Positions 2,908-54,102 of a stretch of 64,000 nt of DNA are shown here, one piece after another (positions within the stretch are counted from its first letter, which is position 1; each line of letters starts with the position of its first letter). A model generated the notes under the pieces. That model made no database searches. It was not told the origin of the DNA and saw nothing but the letters and a program-made list of their open reading frames with translations. Source of the stretch: an uncultured Acidobacteriota bacterium (GTDB taxonomy: Bacteria > Acidobacteriota > Thermoanaerobaculia > Multivoradales > UBA5704); NCBI GenBank assembly GCA_963770895.1, contig CAVYRF010000002.1, positions 4,832,001-4,896,000 on the forward strand. Direction: 5' to 3'. Both the position numbers and the translations under genes were made by a program.

Positions 2908-5370
2908 ATGGGGAGCATCCTGCAAGATCTGCGGTTCGGCAGTCGCTTGCTGTGGAAAGACAAGGGTTTCACGCTCACCACGCTGCTCACGCTGGTGGTC
3001 TGCATCGGCGCCAATGCCGCGATCCTGGCCGTCGTCCATTCGGTGCTGCTGCGGCCGCTGCCGTTTGCCGAGTCGGACCGGGTGGTCCTGGCTTACAACA
3101 GCTATCCGGGGGCGGGGGTGGAGCGGTCTGACAGCGGCGTGCCGGATTTTTACGATCGCCAGCGCGACGTCAGTGCGTTCGAACAGATCGCGATGTACCA
3201 GGAGCGCGGCATGACGCTGGGCGGCGAAGGGTCGGCCTCGCGGGTGGATGGCACCGGCGTCACGCCGTCGTTCTTTCCGCTGCTGCGCGCCCAGGCGCTG
3301 CGCGGGCGGGTGTTTCGCGCCGAGGACGGGGAGGTGGGCGGTGAGCACAAGGTGATCCTGAGCTACGCGCTGTGGCAGCGCCTGTTTGCCGGCAGCGACG
3401 CGGCGCTGGGCAAGGACCTGCGCATCAACGGCGTGCCCTATGCGATCGTCGGCGTCATGCCGGCGGATTTTCTGTTCCTCAAGGCCGACACGCAGCTGTG
3501 GATTCCGCTGGCATTTACCATCAAGGAGAAGGCCGACGAGTCACGCCACAGCAACAACTGGACGATGATCGCGCGGCTGCGGCCGGGCGCCAGCGTGCGG
3601 CAGGCGCAGGAACAGATCGATGCGCTCAACGCGCGCAACCTGGAGCGGTTCCCGGCGATGAAGCTGGCGCTGGTCCGCGCCCGTTTTCACAGCGTTGCCG
3701 TGCCGCTGCAGGAAGACGTGGTGAGCACGCTGCGGCCGGTGCTCTACCTGCTGTGGGCCGGCGTGGTGTGCGTGCTGCTGATCGGTTGCGTGAACATCAC
3801 CAACCTGGCGCTGGTGCGCGCCAGCGGCCGTCTCAAGGAGCTGGCCACCCGCAACTCGCTCGGCGCCAGCCACTACCGCATCGTGCGCCAGCTGCTGATC
3901 GAATCGGTCCTGGTCACCCTGCTGGGCGGCCTGGGCGGCGTGCTGCTGGGCGCGTGGGTTCTCGGGTTCCTCGCGCGCCTGAACATGGACGACCTGCCGC
4001 GCGCCAGCGAGATCCACATGGATGCGTTTGTGGTGGCGTGCATGCTGGGAGTGGCGCTGGTGATCGGCCTGGTCATCGCCGTCGTGCCGGTGCTCAAGCT
4101 GTGGCGGGCCAGCCTGGGCTCGCTGCTGCGCGACGAGGGGCGCGGCGGCACCAGCGGCCAGGGGGCGCGGCGCACGCGGCGCGCGCTGGTCACGGCGCAG
4201 TTTGCGTTCGCCTTCATCCTGCTGGTCTGCGCGGGGCTCCTGGTGGTCAGCTTTCAGCAGGTGCTGGCCGTGCGTCCCGGCTTCGAGCCGGACGGCGTGC
4301 TCACGGCGATGATCAGCCTGCCGATGGCCCAATACAAGTCCGACGCGGAGATGCTGGGCTTCGTCCGGCGCGTGCTGGAGGCGACGCGGCGGCTGCCGGG
4401 GGTGCAGTCGGCCGGCATCACCACCTCGATCCCGTTTGGCGGCGACTACAGCGACAACGTCATCTTTCCGGAAGGCTATGTCGCCGACAAAGGCGAGGTG
4501 ATTTCGCCGAGCGAGCTGCGGGTCAGCGAAGGCTATCTCGAAACCATGCGCACCCGGCTGGTGAGCGGCCGGCTGTTCAACGCCGGCGACACCGCCCAGG
4601 CGCCCAAGGTCGTCCTGGTCGACACCCGGCTGGCACACAAGTTCTGGCCGAACCTGGACCCGATCGGGCGGCGGATCTTCCGGCCCCAGGACGCACAGCA
4701 CCTGGCGGCAGGCCCCAAGACGGAGTACTCCACGGTGGTGGGGGTGGTGGACACGGTGAAGCTGCGCGGCCTGGTCGAAGGGGACGCGCGCTTCGGCTCC
4801 TACTACGTCCCCTTTGCCCAGGGGCCGCAGCACTTCTGGACGCTGGCGGTGCGGTCGACGAGCGACCCCCGCCTGCTCACCTCGACGATCCGCGGCGTCG
4901 TGGCGGGGATCGATCCGGGCCTGCCCCTGTTCGGCATCCGAACGATGAACCAGCGCACCGCGTCGGCGCTCATCGGCCGGCGCGTGCCCATGCTGCTGGC
5001 GCTGGGCTTTGCCGCGGTGGCGCTGTTCCTGTCCGCGGTCGGCGTCTACGGCGTGCTGGCCTACCAGGTGGCGCAGCGCACGCGCGAGATCGGCATTCGC
5101 ATGGCGCTCGGCGGCACGGCGGCAACCATTTCACGCCTGGTGCTGGGTGAAAGCGTGCGCATGCTGGCGGTGGGTCTGGGCATCGGCCTGGTGGGCGCTT
5201 TTGTCGCCAGCCACGCGATGAGCACTCTGCTCTATGGGGTGCAACCCATGGATCCGCTGGTCCTGGTCACCGTGGCGATGGCCCTTGCGGGTGTCGCCCT
5301 GGTCGCCGCGGCCGTGCCCGCCCGCCGTGCGCAGCGGATCGATCCGGCCGTCGCCCTGGCGGCCCAGTAG
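2908..5370 (+). CDS. ADOP-type duplicated ABC permease (MacB-PCD/FtsX x2)
   Basis: MGSILQDLRFGSRLL..GFT start, LRPLPF, LLIGCVNITNL, GVYGVLAYQVAQRTREIGIRMALG, C-terminal PARRAQRIDPAVAL; GAGGT upstream of ATG 2908. Confidence 0.92.
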   Translation: MGSILQDLRFGSRLLWKDKGFTLTTLLTLVVCIGANAAILAVVHSVLLRPLPFAESDRVVLAYNSYPGAGVERSDSGVPDFYDRQRDVSAFEQIAMYQERGMTLGGEGSASRVDGTGVTPSFFPLLRAQALRGRVFRAEDGEVGGEHKVILSYALWQRLFAGSDAALGKDLRINGVPYAIVGVMPADFLFLKADTQLWIPLAFTIKEKADESRHSNNWTMIARLRPGASVRQAQEQIDALNARNLERFPAMKLALVRARFHSVAVPLQEDVVSTLRPVLYLLWAGVVCVLLIGCVNITNLALVRASGRLKELATRNSLGASHYRIVRQLLIESVLVTLLGGLGGVLLGAWVLGFLARLNMDDLPRASEIHMDAFVVACMLGVALVIGLVIAVVPVLKLWRASLGSLLRDEGRGGTSGQGARRTRRALVTAQFAFAFILLVCAGLLVVSFQQVLAVRPGFEPDGVLTAMISLPMAQYKSDAEMLGFVRRVLEATRRLPGVQSAGITTSIPFGGDYSDNVIFPEGYVADKGEVISPSELRVSEGYLETMRTRLVSGRLFNAGDTAQAPKVVLVDTRLAHKFWPNLDPIGRRIFRPQDAQHLAAGPKTEYSTVVGVVDTVKLRGLVEGDARFGSYYVPFAQGPQHFWTLAVRSTSDPRLLTSTIRGVVAGIDPGLPLFGIRTMNQRTASALIGRRVPMLLALGFAAVALFLSAVGVYGVLAYQVAQRTREIGIRMALGGTAATISRLVLGESVRMLAVGLGIGLVGAFVASHAMSTLLYGVQPMDPLVLVTVAMALAGVALVAAAVPARRAQRIDPAVALAAQ

Positions 5371-5485: not shown

Positions 5486-5695
5486 TCAGGCAAGACCGGC
5501 TTGGGCCTGCCACACGCAGCCGGCGTAGCAGGTGTTGAAATAGCAGCTCTGCAGGCACGAATCGCCCGCCTGGCTGATGGGACTGACACCACCCTGCGCG
5601 ATGCCGCCGGCGAGGGCGGGGGTCTGCATCTGCGCATCGCTCAGCCGCTGCAGCGTCTCTTTTCCCAACCGCAACGTCCGCGTGTGCTTCTTCAT
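5486..5695 (-). CDS. Putative RiPP precursor peptide A (69 aa)
   Basis: MKKHTRTLRLGKETLQRLSDAQMQTPALAGG-IAQGGVSPISQAGDSCLQSCYFNTCYAGCVWQAQAGLA; AGGAG RBS 5 nt before ATG; leader shared with peptides B and C. Confidence 0.75.
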   Translation of the reverse strand: MKKHTRTLRLGKETLQRLSDAQMQTPALAGGIAQGGVSPISQAGDSCLQSCYFNTCYAGCVWQAQAGLA

Positions 5696-6011
5696 GACGG
5701 CTCCTTCTCTGCCGGATCGAACCGGCGACACCTGCGTGATGATCGATTGCTTCGACGTGGCAACCTGGCCGCCGAGGCGGTACCTGTCAACCATAAGAGG
5801 TGCCGTGGGCGCACGCACCGGGGCCGCCCGGCCCCGGTGCGGCGCGCCGCCCGCGGCGCCGAGCGGCCGCGCGGCGTCCAGCCCTCGGACGCCGGCGCAC
5901 CGGCGACCGCGGGCGCCCGCCACGACCGGTCACCGCCTTGTGCTGTGCTAGCGTTGCGCCGGTGGCCGCGTGGAATGTCGCTGCCATGCTGCTCAAGGTG
6001 AGGAGGCGGCC

Positions 6012-6407
6012 ATGACCGCAGGAACCGGCGAAGGCATCGTCAGCAAGCCCAGCAGTCATTCGGTCGAGGAGACGGTGGCGCGGCTGACGGGCCTGCTGCA
6101 AGCCAAGGGCGTGACGCTGTTTGCCCTGGTGGATCACAGTGGGGAAGCCGCCAAGGTCGGGATGAGCATGCCTCCCACCAAGCTGCTGATTTTTGGCAGC
6201 CCCAAGGCCGGTACGCCGCTGATGCTGGCGGCGCCCAGCGCGGCCCTCGATCTGCCGCTCAAGATCCTGGTCTGGCAGGACGCCGGAGCCAAGGTCTGGG
6301 TCACCTACAACAGTCCCGCCTACCTCCAGCAGCGCCACGGTCTGCCCGCCGAGCTGCTGGCGAATATCGCCGTCGTCGAAGCGCTGGCCGCCAAGGCCGC
6401 GGAATAG
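6012..6407 (+). CDS. DUF302 domain protein
   Basis: SVEETVARL...FALVDHS..A..VG..MPPTKLLIFGSPKAGTPLM....ALDLPLKILVW; AGGAGG RBS. Confidence 0.9.
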   Translation: MTAGTGEGIVSKPSSHSVEETVARLTGLLQAKGVTLFALVDHSGEAAKVGMSMPPTKLLIFGSPKAGTPLMLAAPSAALDLPLKILVWQDAGAKVWVTYNSPAYLQQRHGLPAELLANIAVVEALAAKAAE

Positions 6408-6429
6408 GCAGAGAGGAAGAGCGATCGCC

Positions 6430-7293
6430 ATGGCTCACCACGAGTTTGACGCTGCCGAGTACAAGGCCGACCAGCGCCGGGCGTGGGACACCGCGGCCGC
6501 CGGTTGGCGACGCTGGTGGCAGGCGATCGAGCGCGGCTTGCAGCCGGTCTGCGACCGGATGCTCGACCTGGCGCAGGTGGCTCCGGGCGAGCGCGTGCTG
6601 GACGTCGCGACCGGCATCGGCGAGCCGGCGCTGAGCGCCGCGGCCCGCGTCGGCCCCACCGGTCATGTCGTGGCGACCGACCTGGCTCCCGCGATGCTGG
6701 CGATCGCCGCCGAACGGGCGCGCCAGGCGGGCGCCGGCAACGTGGAATTCATCCAAGCCGATGCCGAGGCGCTGGAGCTGGCACCCGCCAGCTTTGACGC
6801 GGTCCTGTGCCGCTTCGGCCTGATGTTCCTGCCCGATCCCGGCCGCAGCCTGGCCCGCATGCGAACCCTGCTCAAGGACGACGGCAGGATCGCCGTCGCG
6901 GTGTGGGGGCCGGCGGCCCAGGTGCCGATGATCGCCATGCCGCTGGCGGTGATCCGGCGCGAGCTGGAGCTGCCGCCGCCGCCCGCGGGGGTGCCCGGTG
7001 CGCTGAGCCTGTGCGACGTCCCCGCGCTGGAGCTCCTGGCGCGCGATGCCGGTCTGTCCGCGGTGGCGACCGAAACCGTCGAGACCGTGACGCACCTGCC
7101 TTCGCCGGACGCCTTTGTGCGCTTCCGTCAAGACATCGCCGCGCAGGTCCAGGAGCTGCTGGCGGGACAGAGCCCCGATCGCCAGCAGCGCGCCTGGCAG
7201 GCCGTCGCCCAAGCTGCCGCGGCCGACTACGGGCAGCCCGACGGCAGCATCCTCATGCGCAACCAGGCGATCGTGCTGACCGCCGCGGCGTAG
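6430..7293 (+). CDS. Class I SAM-dependent methyltransferase (UbiE-like)
   Basis: Motif I VLDVATGIGE, ATDLAPAML, DAEAL, FDAVLCRFGLMF. Confidence 0.9.
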   Translation: MAHHEFDAAEYKADQRRAWDTAAAGWRRWWQAIERGLQPVCDRMLDLAQVAPGERVLDVATGIGEPALSAAARVGPTGHVVATDLAPAMLAIAAERARQAGAGNVEFIQADAEALELAPASFDAVLCRFGLMFLPDPGRSLARMRTLLKDDGRIAVAVWGPAAQVPMIAMPLAVIRRELELPPPPAGVPGALSLCDVPALELLARDAGLSAVATETVETVTHLPSPDAFVRFRQDIAAQVQELLAGQSPDRQQRAWQAVAQAAAADYGQPDGSILMRNQAIVLTAAA

Positions 7294-7378
7294 ACCGCGG
7301 TGGCACAGCGAGCGGCCGGCGGCAGGGCGAGGGCGTCCGGCGCCGGCCGCGGCTCGCCAAACCGGCACCGGCCGCGGC

Positions 7379-7528
7379 TCAAGGGCAGGTGTCGGTGCAG
7401 GTGTGGGTGCAGACCTTGGCGTTGGAGCAGATCGCTCCCTCGGTCACCAGGCCGGCGACCACCTGCTGGAGTGTCATCCGGTGCAGCGTCTCGCGGCTGA
7501 GGTTGAGTTTTTTCGATTTCGGCTTCAT
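7379..7528 (-). CDS. Putative RiPP precursor peptide B (49 aa; not in ORF track)
   Basis: Hand translation: MKPKSKKLNLSRETLHRMTLQQVVAG-LVTEGAICSNAKVCTHTCTDTCP*; AAAGGAG RBS; paralog of peptide C. Confidence 0.85.
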   Translation of the reverse strand: MKPKSKKLNLSRETLHRMTLQQVVAGLVTEGAICSNAKVCTHTCTDTCP

Positions 7529-7753
7529 AAGAGCTCCTTTTCGATCGAACTCACCGAATATACCGTTGCGCGATCGCCATCGTCCATCGCCGGAGGGGGG
7601 CCGCCATCACGGGCACGCGTGGCGGCCGGTACGCAGGCGCGGGGGTCTTGCATAGGCCTGATCGGTGGCATGGGCCGCGGCGGGCGGCGGGCGCCCGGAT
7701 GGGCTTGGTAGCGAGCCCGCCCGACTGCCCTGCCGCCCGCTCTGGCTGGTGCT

Positions 7754-7915
7754 TTACGGGTTGCCGGTGCCGCAGGTGACGGTGCAATCCTCGGTGCACA
7801 CCTTGGCGTTGGAACAGATGAGGTTGTTGGTGACGGCGCCGGCGGCCACCTGCTTGAGCGTCATCCGATGCAACGTCTCGCGGTTGAGGTTGAGCTTTTT
7901 CGATTTCGGCTTCAT
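7754..7915 (-). CDS. Putative RiPP precursor peptide C (53 aa)
   Basis: MKPKSKKLNLNRETLHRMTLKQVAAG-AVTNNLICSNAKVCTEDCTVTCGTGNP*; AAAGGAG RBS places the start at 7915 rather than 7969. Confidence 0.85.
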   Translation of the reverse strand: MKPKSKKLNLNRETLHRMTLKQVAAGAVTNNLICSNAKVCTEDCTVTCGTGNP

Positions 7916-8032
7916 TAAACTCTCCTTTCGGTCAAACAAACAAACTGGGTATACGGTTGTAAGCCGCAAGCTGTCTAACGCTGTAATGACAGCAGAAGTA
8001 GTGTGCGCCGCTAAGGTAGGTGCTCAGAGACA

Positions 8033-36637: not shown

Positions 36638-39067
36638 TCACTGCACGCGCAAGGTGGACGCGGGATCGACGTTGGTCGCGCGGCGCGCCGGCACCAGGCA
36701 GGCCAGCAGCGCGGTGACGGCCAGGACGATTGCGGTGACGGCAAACTGCAACCAGCTGGCGGCATCGGTTTCGAACAGCTGGCTGGCCAGCAGGCGGCCG
36801 GCAAACCACGAGCCGACGGCGCCGGCGGCCAGGCCGGGGGCGATCCACCGGATGACCGGGCGCAGCGCGCCGGCCAGCACCTGCGCCCGGCTGGCTCCCA
36901 GGGCGACGCGGACGCCGATCTCGCGGCTGCGTTGCGCCACCGAGTGCGCCACGACGCCGTAGATGCCGAGCAGGCAGAGCACCAGGGCCAGGGCTGAAAA
37001 CGCCGAAAACAGCGCGGTGGTCAGCCGCCGGCGCGCCGTGGCGGTGCGCAGCAGCGACTCCATGGTCTGCAGATCGGGAAGCGGCTGGCTGGGGTCCAGG
37101 GCGTTGACCTCGCGCCGCAGGGCGCCGGCGATGCTGGCCGCCGGCAGCCGGGTGCGCAGCGCCAGGGCCATCGAATCGGGAGGCGACATCACGTCCGGCA
37201 GCTGGCGATGAGCAAGCAGCAGCGTCGGCCGCTCGCCTTGCTCGAGCGTCGCCTGCTGGATGTCGTCGAACACGCCGACGATCGCGACCGGCGCCGGGCT
37301 GATGCGCAGGATCAGATGCTGGCCCAGCGGGTTTTCGCCCGCGAAGTACTGGTCGCGGAAGGAGCGGCTGACGATCGCCGTGAGCGGCGCGCCGGGAGCG
37401 CTGCGCGGGTCGAAGTCGCGGCCGGCCAGCAGGCGTGCCTTGATCGTCTGCAGGTAGCCGGCGCCGGCGACGACGCGCAGCACCAGCGGCCGGTTTTCCG
37501 GCGGCAGCGGCGGCCTGCCGGCGATGGCGAAGGTGCCCAGGGCACCCTCCTCCAGCGGCGGCACCTCCACCATCGCAGCCGCCTCGATGCCGGGCAGCGT
37601 GCGCACGCGATCGACCAGGCCCTCGAAGAAGACGCGCCGCGCGGCGGGCGTCGGGTAGCGCGCCGCGGGCAGCGACACCTGCACGAAGGTCAGGTTGTGC
37701 GGGTCGAACCCGAGCTGCATGCCGTTGACCCGCTGCAAGCTGTGCAGCAGCAGCCCCGCCGCCGACAGCAGCACCAACACCAGGGCGACCTGGAACGACA
37801 CCAGCAGGCCCTGGCTGCGGCTCTCCCGCACGCCGCCGGCGGCGCCGCGCGCCGCTTCGCCCAGGAAGGCGCGCGGATCGGTGCGCAGCGTCTGCCACGC
37901 CGGCGCCAGGCCCGCCAGGATGCCGGCGAGCGCGGTGACCAGCAGGGCGAACGCCAGCACGGGCGGCGACAGGTGCACCTGGTCGATGCGCGGCAGGTCC
38001 GCGGGGTTGGCGGCGACCAGCAGCCGCAGCCCCCAGTCCGCCAGGATCACTCCCACCGCGCCGCCGGCGCCGGCGATCAGCAGGCTGTCGCCCAGCGCCT
38101 GGCCGAACACCTGCCGGCGGCCGGCGCCCAGGGCGATGCGGGTGGCGACCTCGCGCCGGCGCGCCAGGCCGGCGGCCAGCAGCAGGTTGGCCACGTCGGC
38201 ACAGGCGATCAGCAGCACCATCCCCACCGCCGCCAGCAGCACCAGCAGGGTGGTGCGGCTCTCGCCGACCAGGATTTCGTTGAGCCGCACCATGCCGAAG
38301 GGGAAGTTGATGTCGAGGTGCCCCTGGGGGTTGGCCTTGTAGGCGGCGAAGACGCGGTCGCCGTCCGCCTGCGCCGCCGCCGGCGAGACGCCCGGGCGCA
38401 GGCGCGCGGTCACCTCCAGGTAGCCGGAGCCCAGCTCCACCGCCTGGCGGGTGAGGAAGGTGATCTGGTTGGGGCGGGGCAGCCACACCTGCGCCGCGCG
38501 GAAGGGGAAGCGATAGGTGTCGGGCATCACGCCGATCACCGTCGTGGGCACGCCGTCGATCTGGATGCTGCGGCCCAGGACCGCCGGCGAGCCGCCGAAC
38601 CGCTGCCGCCAGAAGCCGTACGACAGCAGCGCCACGTCGGGGCCGCCGTCCCGCTGCTCCGCGGCGTTGAAGGCGCGCCCGGCGAGCGGCGCCAGGCCCC
38701 ATACCTCGAAGAAGCCGGCGCTCACCCGCACCGCCCCGATCTGCTGCGGCCGGTCCCGGTCGGTCAGGCCGGCGGTGGTTTCGAAGTGGGCGGCGACGGC
38801 GGCAAGGGCGCGATTGTTCGCCTGGAGCGCCAGAAACCGCGGCCAGGAGACTTCCCGCAGGTCGTGGCGCGGCGTCACGACGACGCCGACGTGCACCAGG
38901 CGGTCGGCGGCGGGGTAGGGCAGCGGGTGCAGGGCGACCGCATCGAGCAGGCTGAAGATCGCGGTGTTGGCGCCGACGGCAAGGGCCAGCGTGCAAGCGG
39001 CGGTGAGCGCCAGGCCCGGCCGGCGCAGCAGGCGGCGGACGCTGCCTTCGATCGCGGATAGCATCAT
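36638..39067 (-). CDS. ADOP-type duplicated ABC permease
   Basis: LALAVGANTAIFS, PLPYP, LLIACADVANLL, GIYGVVAHSVAQRSREIGVRVALG, PARRATNVDP; start overlaps the patatin stop (ATGA). Confidence 0.9.
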   Translation of the reverse strand: MMLSAIEGSVRRLLRRPGLALTAACTLALAVGANTAIFSLLDAVALHPLPYPAADRLVHVGVVVTPRHDLREVSWPRFLALQANNRALAAVAAHFETTAGLTDRDRPQQIGAVRVSAGFFEVWGLAPLAGRAFNAAEQRDGGPDVALLSYGFWRQRFGGSPAVLGRSIQIDGVPTTVIGVMPDTYRFPFRAAQVWLPRPNQITFLTRQAVELGSGYLEVTARLRPGVSPAAAQADGDRVFAAYKANPQGHLDINFPFGMVRLNEILVGESRTTLLVLLAAVGMVLLIACADVANLLLAAGLARRREVATRIALGAGRRQVFGQALGDSLLIAGAGGAVGVILADWGLRLLVAANPADLPRIDQVHLSPPVLAFALLVTALAGILAGLAPAWQTLRTDPRAFLGEAARGAAGGVRESRSQGLLVSFQVALVLVLLSAAGLLLHSLQRVNGMQLGFDPHNLTFVQVSLPAARYPTPAARRVFFEGLVDRVRTLPGIEAAAMVEVPPLEEGALGTFAIAGRPPLPPENRPLVLRVVAGAGYLQTIKARLLAGRDFDPRSAPGAPLTAIVSRSFRDQYFAGENPLGQHLILRISPAPVAIVGVFDDIQQATLEQGERPTLLLAHRQLPDVMSPPDSMALALRTRLPAASIAGALRREVNALDPSQPLPDLQTMESLLRTATARRRLTTALFSAFSALALVLCLLGIYGVVAHSVAQRSREIGVRVALGASRAQVLAGALRPVIRWIAPGLAAGAVGSWFAGRLLASQLFETDAASWLQFAVTAIVLAVTALLACLVPARRATNVDPASTLRVQ

Positions 39068-51293: not shown

Positions 51294-52871
51294 TCAGGGC
51301 GGGTTGCCGGAGTCGGCGAGGCCGATGCCGAGGGTGGCCAGCAGGTCGCCGCGCACCGCCAGCAGGCCGACGCGCGCGTCGAGCAGGCCCGCGGCGGCCT
51401 TGATCTCCTCTTCGCGGGCGTCGGCCAGGGCGGCCTCGCGGCTGTCCTGGGCGTCCGGCTGGGCGCGCCCCTCGGCGGCCAGGGCGCCGCTGATGCGCAG
51501 GTCTTCTTCGGCGACGGCGCTGGCCTGGCGGGCGATGTCGAGCCCGGCGCGGGCCTGGTCCAGGGTCGCTTCGGCGCGGTGGACGTCGATCGCCAGCTGC
51601 TCGACGCGGGCGCCGCGCTGCTGCTTGAGCTGTTCGATGTTGGCGTCGCTGCGGGCGATGCCGTCGCGCTGCCGGCCGCCGGTCCACAGCGGGTAGGAGA
51701 GCGCCAGGGCGACGCTCCAGTCGTCTTCGCGGAACTTGACGTAAAATTGGTCGACGCCGTTGGCGCGCGACAGGCGCGAATACTGCGCCTCGGCGTCGAC
51801 GGTGAGCGGCGACAGCCACCCGTCGCGCTGCTCGCGGGCGCGGGTCAGCAGCGCGATCTGGTGGTCCAAGCCGTGCAGGGTGACGTCGGCGGCCAGCGCC
51901 GCCGCCAGGTTCGGGTCCGGCGGGGCAGGAGGGCTTTCCGCACCGGGTGTGGGGGGGGCCGGCGCGGTGGCGGCGGGCGGCGTGGTGTTCGCCGGGTTCG
52001 CCGGGTTTGCTGAGCTCGCCGGCGCGGCGGGATCCGGAAGGTCGGCCAGTGGATCGGTGGGGAGGTCGAGCGCGGCGCCGGCGGGCAGGCCCAGGCGCCG
52101 GCGCAGCTCCCATTGGTCGGCGTCGCGCGCCGACACGACCTCCAGGCGGCGCAGGCGGGCCTTGGCTTCGCGCAGGCGCGCCTGGGCCAGGTCGAGGTCG
52201 GTGGACCGCCCCTCGGCGTGCAGGTCGGCGGCGCGGCGGCTCATCGCCTCGCAGGCGGCCAGGCGGCGGTCGGCGGCGGCGACGAGCTGCTGGCCGCTCC
52301 AGGCGCGGGCGTACAGGGCGGCGACGGTTCGCGCCGTGGTGACGCGCGTCCGCAGCCAGGTCGCCTGCGTCACCGCGGTGGTGGCGCGCGCCGAAAACCC
52401 CTTGGCGCGCTGCTCGTTGTTGTACAGCAGCTGGTGCACGCCGACGCTGGCCACCGCCGGCACCTGGCCGGCCACCGCCACCGGCAGCCCGCGGCCAATG
52501 CCCGGCGTCGAGCTGACGCCCGCTTCGGGCCGGAAAGCGTCGGCCACGACGCGCGCGGCGGCGTCGTCGGCAGCCGCCGCGGCCGCCGCGGCCGCCACCT
52601 CGGGATCGTTGCCCAGCCCGAGCGCGGTCGCCCGCCGCAGGGACAGCGTGCCGCTGCCGTCCGCTGCCGTCGGTGCAGACGGATTCGGTTGGGCCGCGAC
52701 GACGCCCCCCGTGGCGGTCGCGGCGAATGTAGGGAGCGGCACGGCCAGGGTGGCCAACAGTGCGGTGACGATGACGGCGGCGACGGCGGCGGCGGCGGCC
52801 GGCGACCGGCGGTGGGCGGCGCGGCGAGGCGCGGCCGGCATGACCGGTGCAGGGCGTTGGCGGTCATTCAT
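51294..52871 (-). CDS. TolC-family outer membrane efflux protein
   Basis: Signal peptide; LSLRRA..L.L.N.PE; helical repeats; WSVAL.LSYPLWTGG; last gene of an efflux operon. Confidence 0.8.
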   Translation of the reverse strand: MNDRQRPAPVMPAAPRRAAHRRSPAAAAAVAAVIVTALLATLAVPLPTFAATATGGVVAAQPNPSAPTAADGSGTLSLRRATALGLGNDPEVAAAAAAAAADDAAARVVADAFRPEAGVSSTPGIGRGLPVAVAGQVPAVASVGVHQLLYNNEQRAKGFSARATTAVTQATWLRTRVTTARTVAALYARAWSGQQLVAAADRRLAACEAMSRRAADLHAEGRSTDLDLAQARLREAKARLRRLEVVSARDADQWELRRRLGLPAGAALDLPTDPLADLPDPAAPASSANPANPANTTPPAATAPAPPTPGAESPPAPPDPNLAAALAADVTLHGLDHQIALLTRAREQRDGWLSPLTVDAEAQYSRLSRANGVDQFYVKFREDDWSVALALSYPLWTGGRQRDGIARSDANIEQLKQQRGARVEQLAIDVHRAEATLDQARAGLDIARQASAVAEEDLRISGALAAEGRAQPDAQDSREAALADAREEEIKAAAGLLDARVGLLAVRGDLLATLGIGLADSGNPP

Positions 52872-54102
52872 GGCGCAGGGCCTCCACCGGGTTCATGTTG
52901 GCGGCGCGCAGGGCGGGGACCAGGCCGAACAGCACCGTCACGCCGCAGGAGAAGACGAAGGCCAGGACCGCGGCCACCGCCGACACCTGGATCTTGAAGT
53001 TCTGGATCAGCAGGCGCGCGGCGATCGGCAGGGCGAGGCCGCCGACGACGCCCAGCAGCGACCCCAGCGACCCCAGGAGCAGCGCTTCGAGCAGGAACTG
53101 GTGCAGGATGTCGCGCCGGCGCGCGCCGACGGAGATGCGCAAGCCGATTTCGCGGGTGCGCTGCTCGACCGAGGCGAGCAGGATGTTCATGATGCCGACG
53201 CCGCCGACCACCACCGACACCGCGGCGACCAGGATGAACACCAGCAGCAGGCCGACCGAGATGGTGTTGGCGACGCGCACCACGGCGCTCATGCTGGTCA
53301 CGTTGTACTGCGAGCCGGGGTGGTGGCGCTCGCGCAGGATCTGCTCGACGGCCGAGACTGCCAGCGGCATCTCGTCGAAGTCGTAGACCTGGGCGAACAG
53401 GGTGTCGATGCGGTGCGACTGGGTGAAGAACCAGCTGGTGGTGATGGGGACGAAGATGGTGTCGGGGGTGACGTCGCCCTGGCCCAGGGTGTCCACCGGC
53501 TCGACGAATTCGCCGATCACCGAAAAGGTCAGCCCGAGCGTATGGATGGTCTTGCCGGCGAGCTGGTCGTCGCCCGGCCACAGCTGGTCGTACAGGTGGC
53601 GGCTGACGATGCAGACCTTGGCCTGCTCGCTCACGTCGTCTTCGTCGAGGAAGCGGCCGAGCAGCACGGTGAGGTTCTTGCGCACCACCGGATAGTTGGC
53701 GGTGGTGCCCAGCACGGTGAGGTTGAGGCTGCGCGCCTGCACCGCCACCTCGCCGTGCAGGATGGCGAGCGGCGTCACGCCGGCGAACAGGTCGTGGCGG
53801 CCCGCCACCGCCGTGGCGTCGGTGTCGCGGATGAAGTCGTCTTCCATCCGCGCCTGGCCGGCGCTGGTGGTGCCGACGTAGGTGGCCCACAGCAGGTGGG
53901 AGCCGACGCCCTCGATCTGCGACATGACGAAGCTGCGGCCGGTGAGGCCCAGCGCCACCACGACGATGATCGCCGCGGTGCCGACGAACAGGCCGATCAG
54001 GGTGAGCCAGGTCTGCAACGGGTTGGTGTGAAAGCGCTGCAGGGCGCTTTCGACCACCTCGGGGCGGGGCAGCCAATCAATGCGGTTTGGCTTCGACGAC
54101 AC
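52864..54102 (-). CDS. MacB/FtsX-like ABC permease without fused ATPase (start uncertain)
   Basis: LTLIGLFVGTAAII, GRFL, SVVVGGVGIMNILLASVEQRTREIGLR.SVGA, PALRAANMNPVEALRHE. Confidence 0.9.
   Translation of the reverse strand: MSSKPNRIDWLPRPEVVESALQRFHTNPLQTWLTLIGLFVGTAAIIVVVALGLTGRSFVMSQIEGVGSHLLWATYVGTTSAGQARMEDDFIRDTDATAVAGRHDLFAGVTPLAILHGEVAVQARSLNLTVLGTTANYPVVRKNLTVLLGRFLDEDDVSEQAKVCIVSRHLYDQLWPGDDQLAGKTIHTLGLTFSVIGEFVEPVDTLGQGDVTPDTIFVPITTSWFFTQSHRIDTLFAQVYDFDEMPLAVSAVEQILRERHHPGSQYNVTSMSAVVRVANTISVGLLLVFILVAAVSVVVGGVGIMNILLASVEQRTREIGLRISVGARRRDILHQFLLEALLLGSLGSLLGVVGGLALPIAARLLIQNFKIQVSAVAAVLAFVFSCGVTVLFGLVPALRAANMNPVEALRHE

Follow-up and report, generated by a model that had tools for sequence, protein, structure and literature searches.

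Scattered class I lanthipeptide-type precursor genes in a Thermoanaerobaculia genome and their probable maturation in trans by a distant LanB/LanC pair

The 64-kb stretch of DNA analysed here, called the window below (G000:C2:4832001-4896000, G000 being the source genome and C1 and C2 its contigs), carries three short genes, pA, pB, and pC, that appear to encode precursors of RiPPs (peptides made by the ribosome and modified after translation). Which enzymes could mature these peptides? An earlier reading made from the letters of this DNA (the sequence-only reading) had recognised no maturase in the window. This agrees with our genome-wide profile searches, in which the window gave no match to PF04738, PF14028, PF05147, PF13575, PF03412, PF04055, or PF02624, and thus contained no match for LanB, LanC, LanM, C39, radical S-adenosylmethionine (SAM), or YcaO proteins. 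We consider it likely that pA, pB, and pC are LanA precursors of a class I lanthipeptide system with scattered parts and are matured in trans by a LanB/LanC pair encoded far from them. The family to which they belong, about 91 genes at 80 loci, is probably served as a whole by this one distant pair, in a prochlorosin-like manner.

The three genes and their genome-wide family

All three open reading frames (ORFs) start with ATG, which is preceded at a distance of 5-6 nt by GAAGGAG or AAGGAG (Table 1). Their leaders share the motif (K/R)xLxLx(K/R)ETL and end in GG or AG, and after residue 30 each peptide contains four Cys and five Ser/Thr, the spacing of which permits (methyl)lanthionine rings. 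pB and pC are tandem duplicates, with DNA similarity extending from approximately 45 nt upstream of the genes to the stop codon. The changes between them are mostly synonymous in the leader and mostly non-synonymous in the core; the Cys codons are kept, and so is a Thr three residues ahead of two of the Cys. The coordinates, the AGGAG sites, and the motif all bear out the sequence-only reading of three minus-strand ORFs with strong ribosome-binding sites, a shared leader, and four-Cys cores. That reading had described a family of three, however, and the family proved to be far larger. A search of the genome and its relatives with a profile hidden Markov model (HMM) of the leader, which the same reading had proposed, gave 91 genes here and found the leader in 25 of 41 related genomes.

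The source genome comprises 8.16 Mb with a GC content of 70.7%. A regular-expression scan of its six-frame translation yielded approximately 50 small ORFs with the same leader. A search of the genome's complete set of 119,748 six-frame segments with the leader HMM built from these ORFs returned 91 genes at E<=1e-3, compared with no match at this threshold in the reversed-sequence database. A separate search with an alignment of 23 leaders (A1) likewise gave 91 matches. The members are 36-75 aa long, 82 of them start with ATG, and they are spread over the 80 loci as 71 single genes, seven pairs, and two triplets. Mean column identity was 42% in the leader-only alignment vs 28% in the alignment of the full-length peptides.

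The composition of the cores is that of potential lanthipeptides. Cys makes up 16.7% of the cores and 0.6% of the leaders; 87 of the 91 cores contain at least two Cys, and Ser plus Thr equal or outnumber Cys in 90 of them. A Ser or Thr lies 2-6 residues upstream of 94% of the Cys, compared with 68 ± 2.5% in shuffled cores, with an enrichment at position -5 relative to Cys (z ~5). The commonest core Cys count is four (30/91), and an odd number of Cys, found in 38 of the 91 cores, argues against a disulfide-only design. These figures bear on whether the peptides might instead be unmodified or disulfide-only secreted double-glycine peptides, class II bacteriocin-like or signalling, exported by a peptidase-containing ATP-binding cassette (ABC) transporter (PCAT) and devoid of lanthionines. 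Such peptides would suit the leaders ending in GG or AG, the presence of PCATs in the genome, the lack of an adjacent maturase, and the four-Cys cores, including those of pA, pB, and pC, in which two disulfides are possible. The odd Cys counts and the Ser/Thr donors upstream of Cys speak against them, as do the co-occurrence of the leader with LanB, its adjacency to LanB in other genomes, and the fact that the sole curated family matched is a lanthipeptide leader. We therefore regard unmodified peptides as quite unlikely.

A hint of transcription came from soil metatranscriptome run X7, in which a 175-nt contig matched positions 7656-7830 of the window without mismatch, covering the pC core and 98 nt past the stop codon. 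In the rest of the 2.8 kb compared, the only other piece from this run was 34 nt long with three mismatches, at 6247-6280. Four sequencing runs, one of them RNA, were compared with the stretch, the uncovered parts being uninformative, and no sequencing run contained half or more of the sampled words. The contig on pC is a weak hint, and a hint only, because RNA libraries can contain DNA.

So many small genes could also be copies that are silent or in decay, left over from a system that was formerly clustered, or ORFs that arose by chance in GC-rich DNA. This explanation would fit the lack of orthologues of pA, pB, and pC in same-genus genomes, a copy number that ranges from 1 to 91 within the genus, and transcription evidence consisting of a single contig. 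However, the frames are intact, a strict Shine-Dalgarno (SD) sequence precedes 80 of the 91 genes vs 8.5% of random 13-mers, and the reversed-sequence control was empty. Moreover, the leader changes between pB and pC are mostly synonymous while Cys and ring-donor Thr are conserved, near-identical cores occur at dispersed loci (C2:3876774, C2:4747628), and the metatranscriptome contig lies on pC itself. We consider relics or chance ORFs very unlikely.

Two groups of cores are described here in their own right. At C2:3876774-3876929 and C2:4747628-4747783, approximately 870 kb apart, the cores take the form ...PPVCENSGNAITHCTGCC and hardly differ, and a shorter variant occurs at a third locus, C2:5454162-5454299; unlike most of the family, these cores are conserved between dispersed paralogues. 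A leader sub-family with 'ETLLPL' has Cys-poor, His-containing cores. Two of its members lack Cys altogether and lie approximately 145 bp from stand-alone LanC-like genes (C1:1579906-1581279 and C2:2707932-2709301), and two further members (C2:5020187 and C1:652841) adjoin no LanC.

The leader type and the distant LanB/LanC pair

The only NCBIfam model matched by the leaders of pA, pB, and pC alike was NF038153 (lant_leader_L1a, 'class I lanthipeptide'); a Pfam search with the three peptides gave no matches. Three genes of the genome pass NF038153 at 28.5, 28.3, and 27.5 bits, and two of these belong to the 91-member family. In the excerpts of Walker 2020 that deal with this leader (PMC7268733), the motif LxLxKx5L, in place of FNLD and often with a GG end, characterises the leader of Bacteroidetes class I LanAs, and C39 proteases occur in the clusters of such LanAs; family I_17, which includes pinensin, is mentioned in a separate passage. 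Judged by its sequence, the leader of the window peptides is this known Bacteroidetes-type class I lanthipeptide leader. The earlier description of it as class I lanthipeptide-like thus stands, whereas the suggestion of an undescribed acidobacterial peptide family does not, since the leader type is already curated and described. The pinensin family I_17 presumably carries the same LxLxKx5L...GG leader type. Hydrophobic residues at positions -4, -7, and -12 are a motif of double-glycine leaders, and by eye pB and pC show this pattern ahead of the cleavage site.

RiPP-modifying enzymes are encoded outside the window, among them an intact LanB/LanC pair (Table 1). The LanB of this pair is the sole full-length, intact LanB of the genome. 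Its nearest solved relative is 5ehk, deposited as 'Lantibiotic dehydratase' (E 6e-47), which we take to be MibB, and the stretch 'RY..RM..R.TPFG.F' is conserved. Genes for chorismate synthase, RNase II, and an M14 peptidase flank the pair, and the approximately 8 kb on either side of it contain no leader match. One protein with only the LanB N-terminal domain and one with only Lant_dehydr_C are also encoded in the genome. The former (glutamylation domain, 124 bits in a 925-aa frame) lies at C2:4508468-4510498, and genes of this kind are also present in relatives, one of them being G002 with its single precursor; it could represent a small LanB or an enzyme of the PEARL type. C39 matches number nine in the genome and include two full PCATs (C39, ABC_membrane, and ABC_tran) and a third protein with C39 and ABC_tran. 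Both the GG/AG cleavage sites of the window leaders and a PCAT are therefore present.

Established class I lanthipeptide chemistry suggests how dehydration, cyclisation, cleavage, export, and any biological activity could follow from these parts. The ribosome would make a precursor whose N-terminal leader, approximately 26-31 residues long and marked by K/R-x-L-x-L-x-K/R-E-T-L, would act as the recognition handle for the single full-length LanB, as the complex model described below predicts. LanB would glutamylate Ser and Thr of the core and then eliminate the glutamate to give dehydro-amino acids, to which LanC would add the four Cys thiols, closing four (methyl)lanthionine rings. The donor-acceptor pairs would probably be T-x4-C, S-x4-C, T-x2-C, and T-x2-C in pB and pC. 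A PCAT encoded elsewhere would cut after GG or AG and export the product. With conserved leaders and hypervariable cores, one enzyme pair would thus produce a large natural library.

LanB and the leader in other genomes

In low-copy relatives (G002 to G038 are our labels for related genomes), the precursors adjoin the orthologous LanB. This is the case in G002, a member of the same genus with one copy, in G030 with one copy, and in G027 with seven copies, six of which are in tandem. Of the public LanB loci found with the LanB of the source genome, 34 of 80 have at least one leader match within 10 kb, so homologues of the leader do occur near a maturase. Most of these leader-bearing loci are from metagenome-assembled genomes titled Thermoanaerobaculia or Acidobacteriota; the others are from Holophagales, Acidobacteriaceae, Myxococcota, Actinomycetota, and Verrucomicrobiota.

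Among the 41 related genomes searched, all 25 leader-positive ones have a match to PF04738. A single match at E<=1e-140 was found in 21 of these 25, the match being weaker or in pieces in G005, G013, G020, and G024, and such a strong match was found in only one of the 16 leader-negative genomes (G029). Pairs within a family or genus agree on leader and LanB (G024 vs G014, G025 vs G036, and G027 vs G038). LanM does not follow the leader: seven of the 25 leader-positive genomes lack it, among them G018 (38 copies, 100% complete) and G022 (35 copies), and three of the 16 leader-negative ones have it.

Residues 1-810 of LanB and the pC leader were modelled as a complex, the score being the median of three runs, together with three controls. 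The score was 0.64, whereas that of the best control was 0.00. Of 80 solved complexes, 58 attained this mark, as did two of 110 mismatched pairs; these counts calibrate the model only roughly because our own alignments were supplied. The runs agreed in at least 66% of contacts, and the predicted local distance difference test (pLDDT) value of the partner was at least 53. The model places leader residues 3-18, which include the LxLxRETL motif, against LanB residues 211-218 and 273-292; the former segment holds columns that are invariant or nearly so across 25 LanBs (H213, L214, V215, and A216). The structure of a NisB-leader complex has been solved. Because LanB-leader complexes are already among the solved structures, the score may reflect likeness to these and is not proof of binding. 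Taken together, the 91 copies, the LanB/LanC pair without an adjacent precursor, the LanB adjacency and co-occurrence in other genomes, and the complex model support in silico the dispersed, prochlorosin-like maturation in trans that the sequence-only reading had proposed.

The spread of the family was assessed from leader counts in the 41 related genomes, taken from the best 150 scored candidates per genome. Within the taxonomic family, the leader was found in 20 of 24 other genomes, with 25-66 copies in fifteen and 1-18 in the other five. Within the genus, eight of nine other genomes have 18 or more copies, the outlier being G002 with one, so that copy numbers range from 1 to the 91 of the source genome. 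Copy numbers of 18-66 recur throughout the genus, apart from this outlier, and in most of the taxonomic family, in which roughly two thirds of the genomes examined have large precursor families (18 or more copies). Among 151 genomes sampled from the class, with 51 candidates scored in each, seven or more copies were confined to families f1, f2, and f4 of the order to which the window belongs, and other families had 0-2 copies.

At 18 of the 80 LanB loci, with LanB identities as low as approximately 55%, chorismate synthase and RNase II genes stand beside LanB/LanC; 10 of these 18 loci have no leader match. Such a shared housekeeping context is more in keeping with vertical inheritance of the enzyme pair than with a mobile cluster. 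From these comparisons, the enzyme pair looks like a vertically inherited fixture, and the precursors look as if they turn over fast. A profile search of a large protein collection gave 437 homologues among 704 candidates. Of the 120 homologues listed, most of those that carry a name are called 'hypothetical protein'; NCBI names one 'class I lanthipeptide [Thermoanaerobaculia bacterium]', another is called 'natural product precursor', and one database homologue is tagged PF28317. When pC was used as the query against a collection of 5.8 billion proteins, only pC and pB themselves were returned.

Several results weigh against maturation by the distant LanB/LanC pair. The NF038153 scores of pA, pB, and pC all fall under the curated cut-off of 22 bits (Table 1), so that the link of the window peptides to this model runs via the genome's own leader HMM, and in its leader-to-GG spacing pA departs from the hydrophobic -4/-7/-12 pattern. 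The nearest LanB or LanC is 327-341 kb from the window peptides, whose link to LanB is accordingly drawn from their family membership and from comparison, not from context. Among the relatives, G029 has a strong LanB and no leader match, G024 has 27 precursors and its LanB only as frameshifted pieces, and the best LanB match of G005 (66 precursors, 84% complete) is weaker; because the related genomes are kin, the co-occurrence counts also overstate the independence of the cases. A DNA search of nine same-genus genomes found the DUF302 and MFS genes of the window and no orthologues of pA, pB, or pC, the only matches in the peptide genes being two short ones (55-74 nt) in the pA gene and the pB leader, so that conservation of these particular products cannot be shown. 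The evidence is computational throughout, and it is from such evidence that we infer dehydration, rings, and cleavage. Regarding G024, the LanB N-terminal domain lies at G024:C3:1392860-1394854 in five pieces over four or more open frames, which could represent a pseudogene or indel errors of long-read assembly.

The remaining points of this kind concern other enzymes. Of the 90 precursors tabulated, only five have a LanC or LanM within 5 kb. Four precursors are 145-175 bp from stand-alone LanC-like genes, which implies that more than one enzyme system may read the leader, and one leader-bearing precursor is 3.5 kb from a LanM. The peptides could be RiPP precursors matured by a different system that reads the same leader. 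This could be a stand-alone LanC-like enzyme together with a dehydratase that escaped recognition, a LanM, or a radical SAM enzyme, or else one leader could be common to several systems, as is the case for Nif11/NHLP leaders. Besides the LanB/LanC pair, the genome has nine stand-alone LanC-like genes, two LanMs, and two LanC-domain proteins of approximately 1030 aa. In Thermoanaerobaculia, LanM and a GMC oxidase act on Cys-rich precursors, according to parts of a recent study (PMC13083261). Against another system, each LanM of our genome has a nearby peptide with a different leader (one confirmed, the other judged by eye), and LanM is missing from the seven leader-positive genomes mentioned above. 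Radical SAM genes are near precursors at chance level (approximately 3 pairs within 5 kb vs approximately 3.5 expected; 31 genes in the genome, none in the window), and the only YcaO gene of the genome lies outside the window. No neighbour family recurs among GC3-filtered ORFs (filtered by GC content at third codon positions) within 6 kb of the 80 loci, families being found at most at nine precursor loci each, whereas the same families occurred at 5-17 of 80 random control loci. On this basis, we rejected the idea of an unseen but conserved maturase next to the precursors, and we judge maturation by another system to be unlikely, preferring the distant LanB/LanC pair.

Three loci with LanM or LanC-like genes deserve a description. 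Near the LanM at C2:4307447-4310992, a peptide scores 47.4 bits with TIGR03898 (mersacidin/lichenicidin type; cut-off 23.5). It is followed by an ABC transporter that lacks a C39 domain. At the second LanM locus (C2:272850-276460), the peptide at C2:276212-276460, approximately 0.7 kb from LanM, shows the same mersacidin-type motif by eye. On these features, the two LanM loci are separate, conventional class II clusters. Locus L127 (C2:3320488-3327690) encodes a 72-aa precursor with 10 Cys and the family leader, upstream of two tandem LanC-like genes. A phage-type integrase gene is nearby, GC3 is below that of the rest of the genome, no LanB is nearby, and a Lant_dehydr_C-only gene lies 16 kb away; the locus resembles a mobile island whose lanthipeptide gene set is incomplete or unusual.

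The features discussed above are listed in Table 1. The promoter match near pB is one site vs 0.1 expected in shuffled sequence, and its -10 region falls inside the upstream stretch conserved between pB and pC; a simple terminator scan found none. Domain matches confirmed the neighbours that had been recognised earlier, namely an ADOP permease (MacB_PCD/FtsX; TIGR03434, 802 bits), DUF302, a SAM methyltransferase, and a transporter of the major facilitator superfamily (MFS_3). The genome has 48 ADOP paralogues above the TIGR03434 cut-off, one of which is at 2917-5358 (+) of the window, and two more ADOP-like matches lie in the window at approximately 36644-39043 and 52867-53670. An ADOP gene stands 127-202 bp from five of the 80 precursor loci vs 1.8 ± 1.3 on random placement, in mixed orientations; this excess is marginal, and we do not claim a functional link.

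Table 1: Precursor genes in the window, their expression signals, and candidate processing genes elsewhere in the genome. Positions are those of the window unless a contig is given.
Feature	Position	Strand	Basis and details
pA, precursor gene, 69 aa	5486-5695	-	ORF and translation; leader MKKHTRTLRLGKETLQRLSDAQMQTPALAGG, core IAQGGVSPISQAGDSCLQSCYFNTCYAGCVWQAQAGLA; leader form MKKHTRTLRLGKETLQRL...LAGG; 4 Cys and 5 Ser/Thr in the core; leader HMM E 6.6e-8; NF038153 18.0 bits
Shine-Dalgarno sequence of pA, GAAGGAG	5701-5707	-	Read from sequence
pB, precursor gene, 49 aa	7379-7528	-	ORF and translation; leader MKPKSKKLNLSRETLHRMTLQQVVAG, core LVTEGAICSNAKVCTHTCTDTCP; leader end VVAG; leader HMM E 7.2e-12; NF038153 14.4 bits; tandem duplicate of pC
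Shine-Dalgarno sequence of pB, AAGGAG	7534-7539	-	Read from sequence
Sigma-70-like promoter match TGGACG-18-TATATT, ~29 nt 5' of the pB start codon	7557-7586	-	Consensus match only
pC, precursor gene, 53 aa	7754-7915	-	ORF and translation; leader MKPKSKKLNLNRETLHRMTLKQVAAG, core AVTNNLICSNAKVCTEDCTVTCGTGNP; leader end VAAG; leader HMM E 5.2e-13; NF038153 16.5 bits
Shine-Dalgarno sequence of pC, AAGGAG	7922-7927	-	Read from sequence
LanB, full-length dehydratase, 1177 aa	G000:C2:5180194-5183361		Lant_dehydr_N PF04738 550 bits; Lant_dehydr_C PF14028 236 bits
LanC and LanB pair	C2:5178843-5183361		Convergent genes; LanC matches LANC_like at 112 bits
PCAT with all three domains	C1:1782768-1784981		C39, ABC_membrane, ABC_tran
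PCAT with all three domains	C2 ~2970254-2973841		C39, ABC_membrane, ABC_tran

Comparison with known systems

Our literature search, with most subscription journals and supplements outside its scope, found no genome-wide expansion of class I precursors, nor one in Acidobacteriota or Thermoanaerobaculia. In the parts of a 2025 review on lanthipeptide enzyme promiscuity (PMC12328550) that address this subject, a dispersed class I arrangement was likewise not found. The leader type and the chemistry are known; what seems new is the scale of the family and the in-trans class I arrangement, recurring across the clade. If the proposed system is real, it would provide a naturally substrate-tolerant (promiscuous), Glu-tRNA-dependent LanB/LanC pair. 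It would also mean that the library strategy arose independently, with different enzymes, in soil bacteria, and the repertoire would be among the largest lanthipeptide repertoires of any one genome.

The family also exposes a blind spot of genome mining. Cluster-based tools look at few genes around a LanC, and the search described in the excerpts of Walker 2020 (PMC7268733) was confined to seven, a limit at which such dispersed precursors would go unseen. NF038153 passes just three genes here. Cluster-bound mining and a strict leader model thus leave most of this peptide space unannotated, in a group that, as part of the study cited above (PMC13083261) points out, is currently highlighted, together with other Acidobacteriota, as rich in biosynthetic gene clusters.

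The closest relatives are the Bacteroidetes-type class I LanAs of NF038153, which have the same leader motif, the same GG/AG end, and a Ser/Thr/Cys-rich core, and which are likewise associated with full-length LanB and LanC and with C39 transporters expected to remove the leader. Here, in contrast, approximately 91 genes are scattered at 80 loci outside the LanBC cluster, the window peptides score under the NF038153 cut-off, and the host belongs to Thermoanaerobaculia (Acidobacteriota). The nisin proteins NisA, NisB, and NisC and the dehydratase MibB resemble the present system in having a LanB with both Lant_dehydr_N and Lant_dehydr_C and the conserved 'RY..RM..R.TPFG.F', and in a leader that is modelled as a strand docking on the N-terminal domain. 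They differ in FNLD vs LxLxRETL, in a LanP subtilisin site vs a GG/AG end, and in the operon with the precursor that is absent here.

The tha and the clusters of Thermoanaerobaculia, in which LanM and a GMC oxidoreductase form thiazole, come from the same bacterial class and likewise encode lanthipeptide precursors with Cys-rich cores, as described in excerpts of the report (Nature 2026, PMC13083261), the nearest to our findings in the literature searched. In that account, however, these class II clusters are compact, the precursor gene is adjacent, and there is a GGC thiazole site. The LanMs of our genome are beside peptides with different leaders (one confirmed by TIGR03898), and no GMC oxidase gene adjoins the LanM examined. 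Our family is set apart from tha and the by these descriptions of the clusters.

Natural lanthipeptide systems with one enzyme and many substrates are known for class II (ProcM and SyncM); the purpose of their libraries is unknown, and such systems are studied both as an evolutionary puzzle and as engineering tools. Prochlorosin/ProcM and SyncA/SyncM of marine picocyanobacteria share with the present family many precursors, a conserved leader, hypervariable cores, and a location that is mostly far from the single synthetase. The reported numbers are 29 prochlorosin precursors and up to 79 SyncA, as given in part of a review (PMC12328550) and in an abstract. Prochlorosin-like dispersal, with dozens of precursors, a conserved leader, and variable cores, is seen here, whereas a ProcM-type LanM acting with a Nif11/NHLP leader is not. 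ProcM and SyncM are class II, with one bifunctional LanM and Nif11-type leaders; the present system would be class I, with separate LanB and LanC and an unrelated leader, and its LanB would depend on Glu-tRNA, since class I dehydratases need cognate Glu-tRNA (excerpt of PMC9993889). The host is a soil acidobacterium, and LanB/LanC lie in a conserved housekeeping context. On balance, we lean slightly towards the view that a soil Thermoanaerobaculia clade keeps LanB/LanC beside aroC and an RNase II gene and matures with it a fast-evolving, dispersed library of typically approximately 25-90 precursors per genome, with 91 in the present one, which would make this system the first class I counterpart of the prochlorosins.

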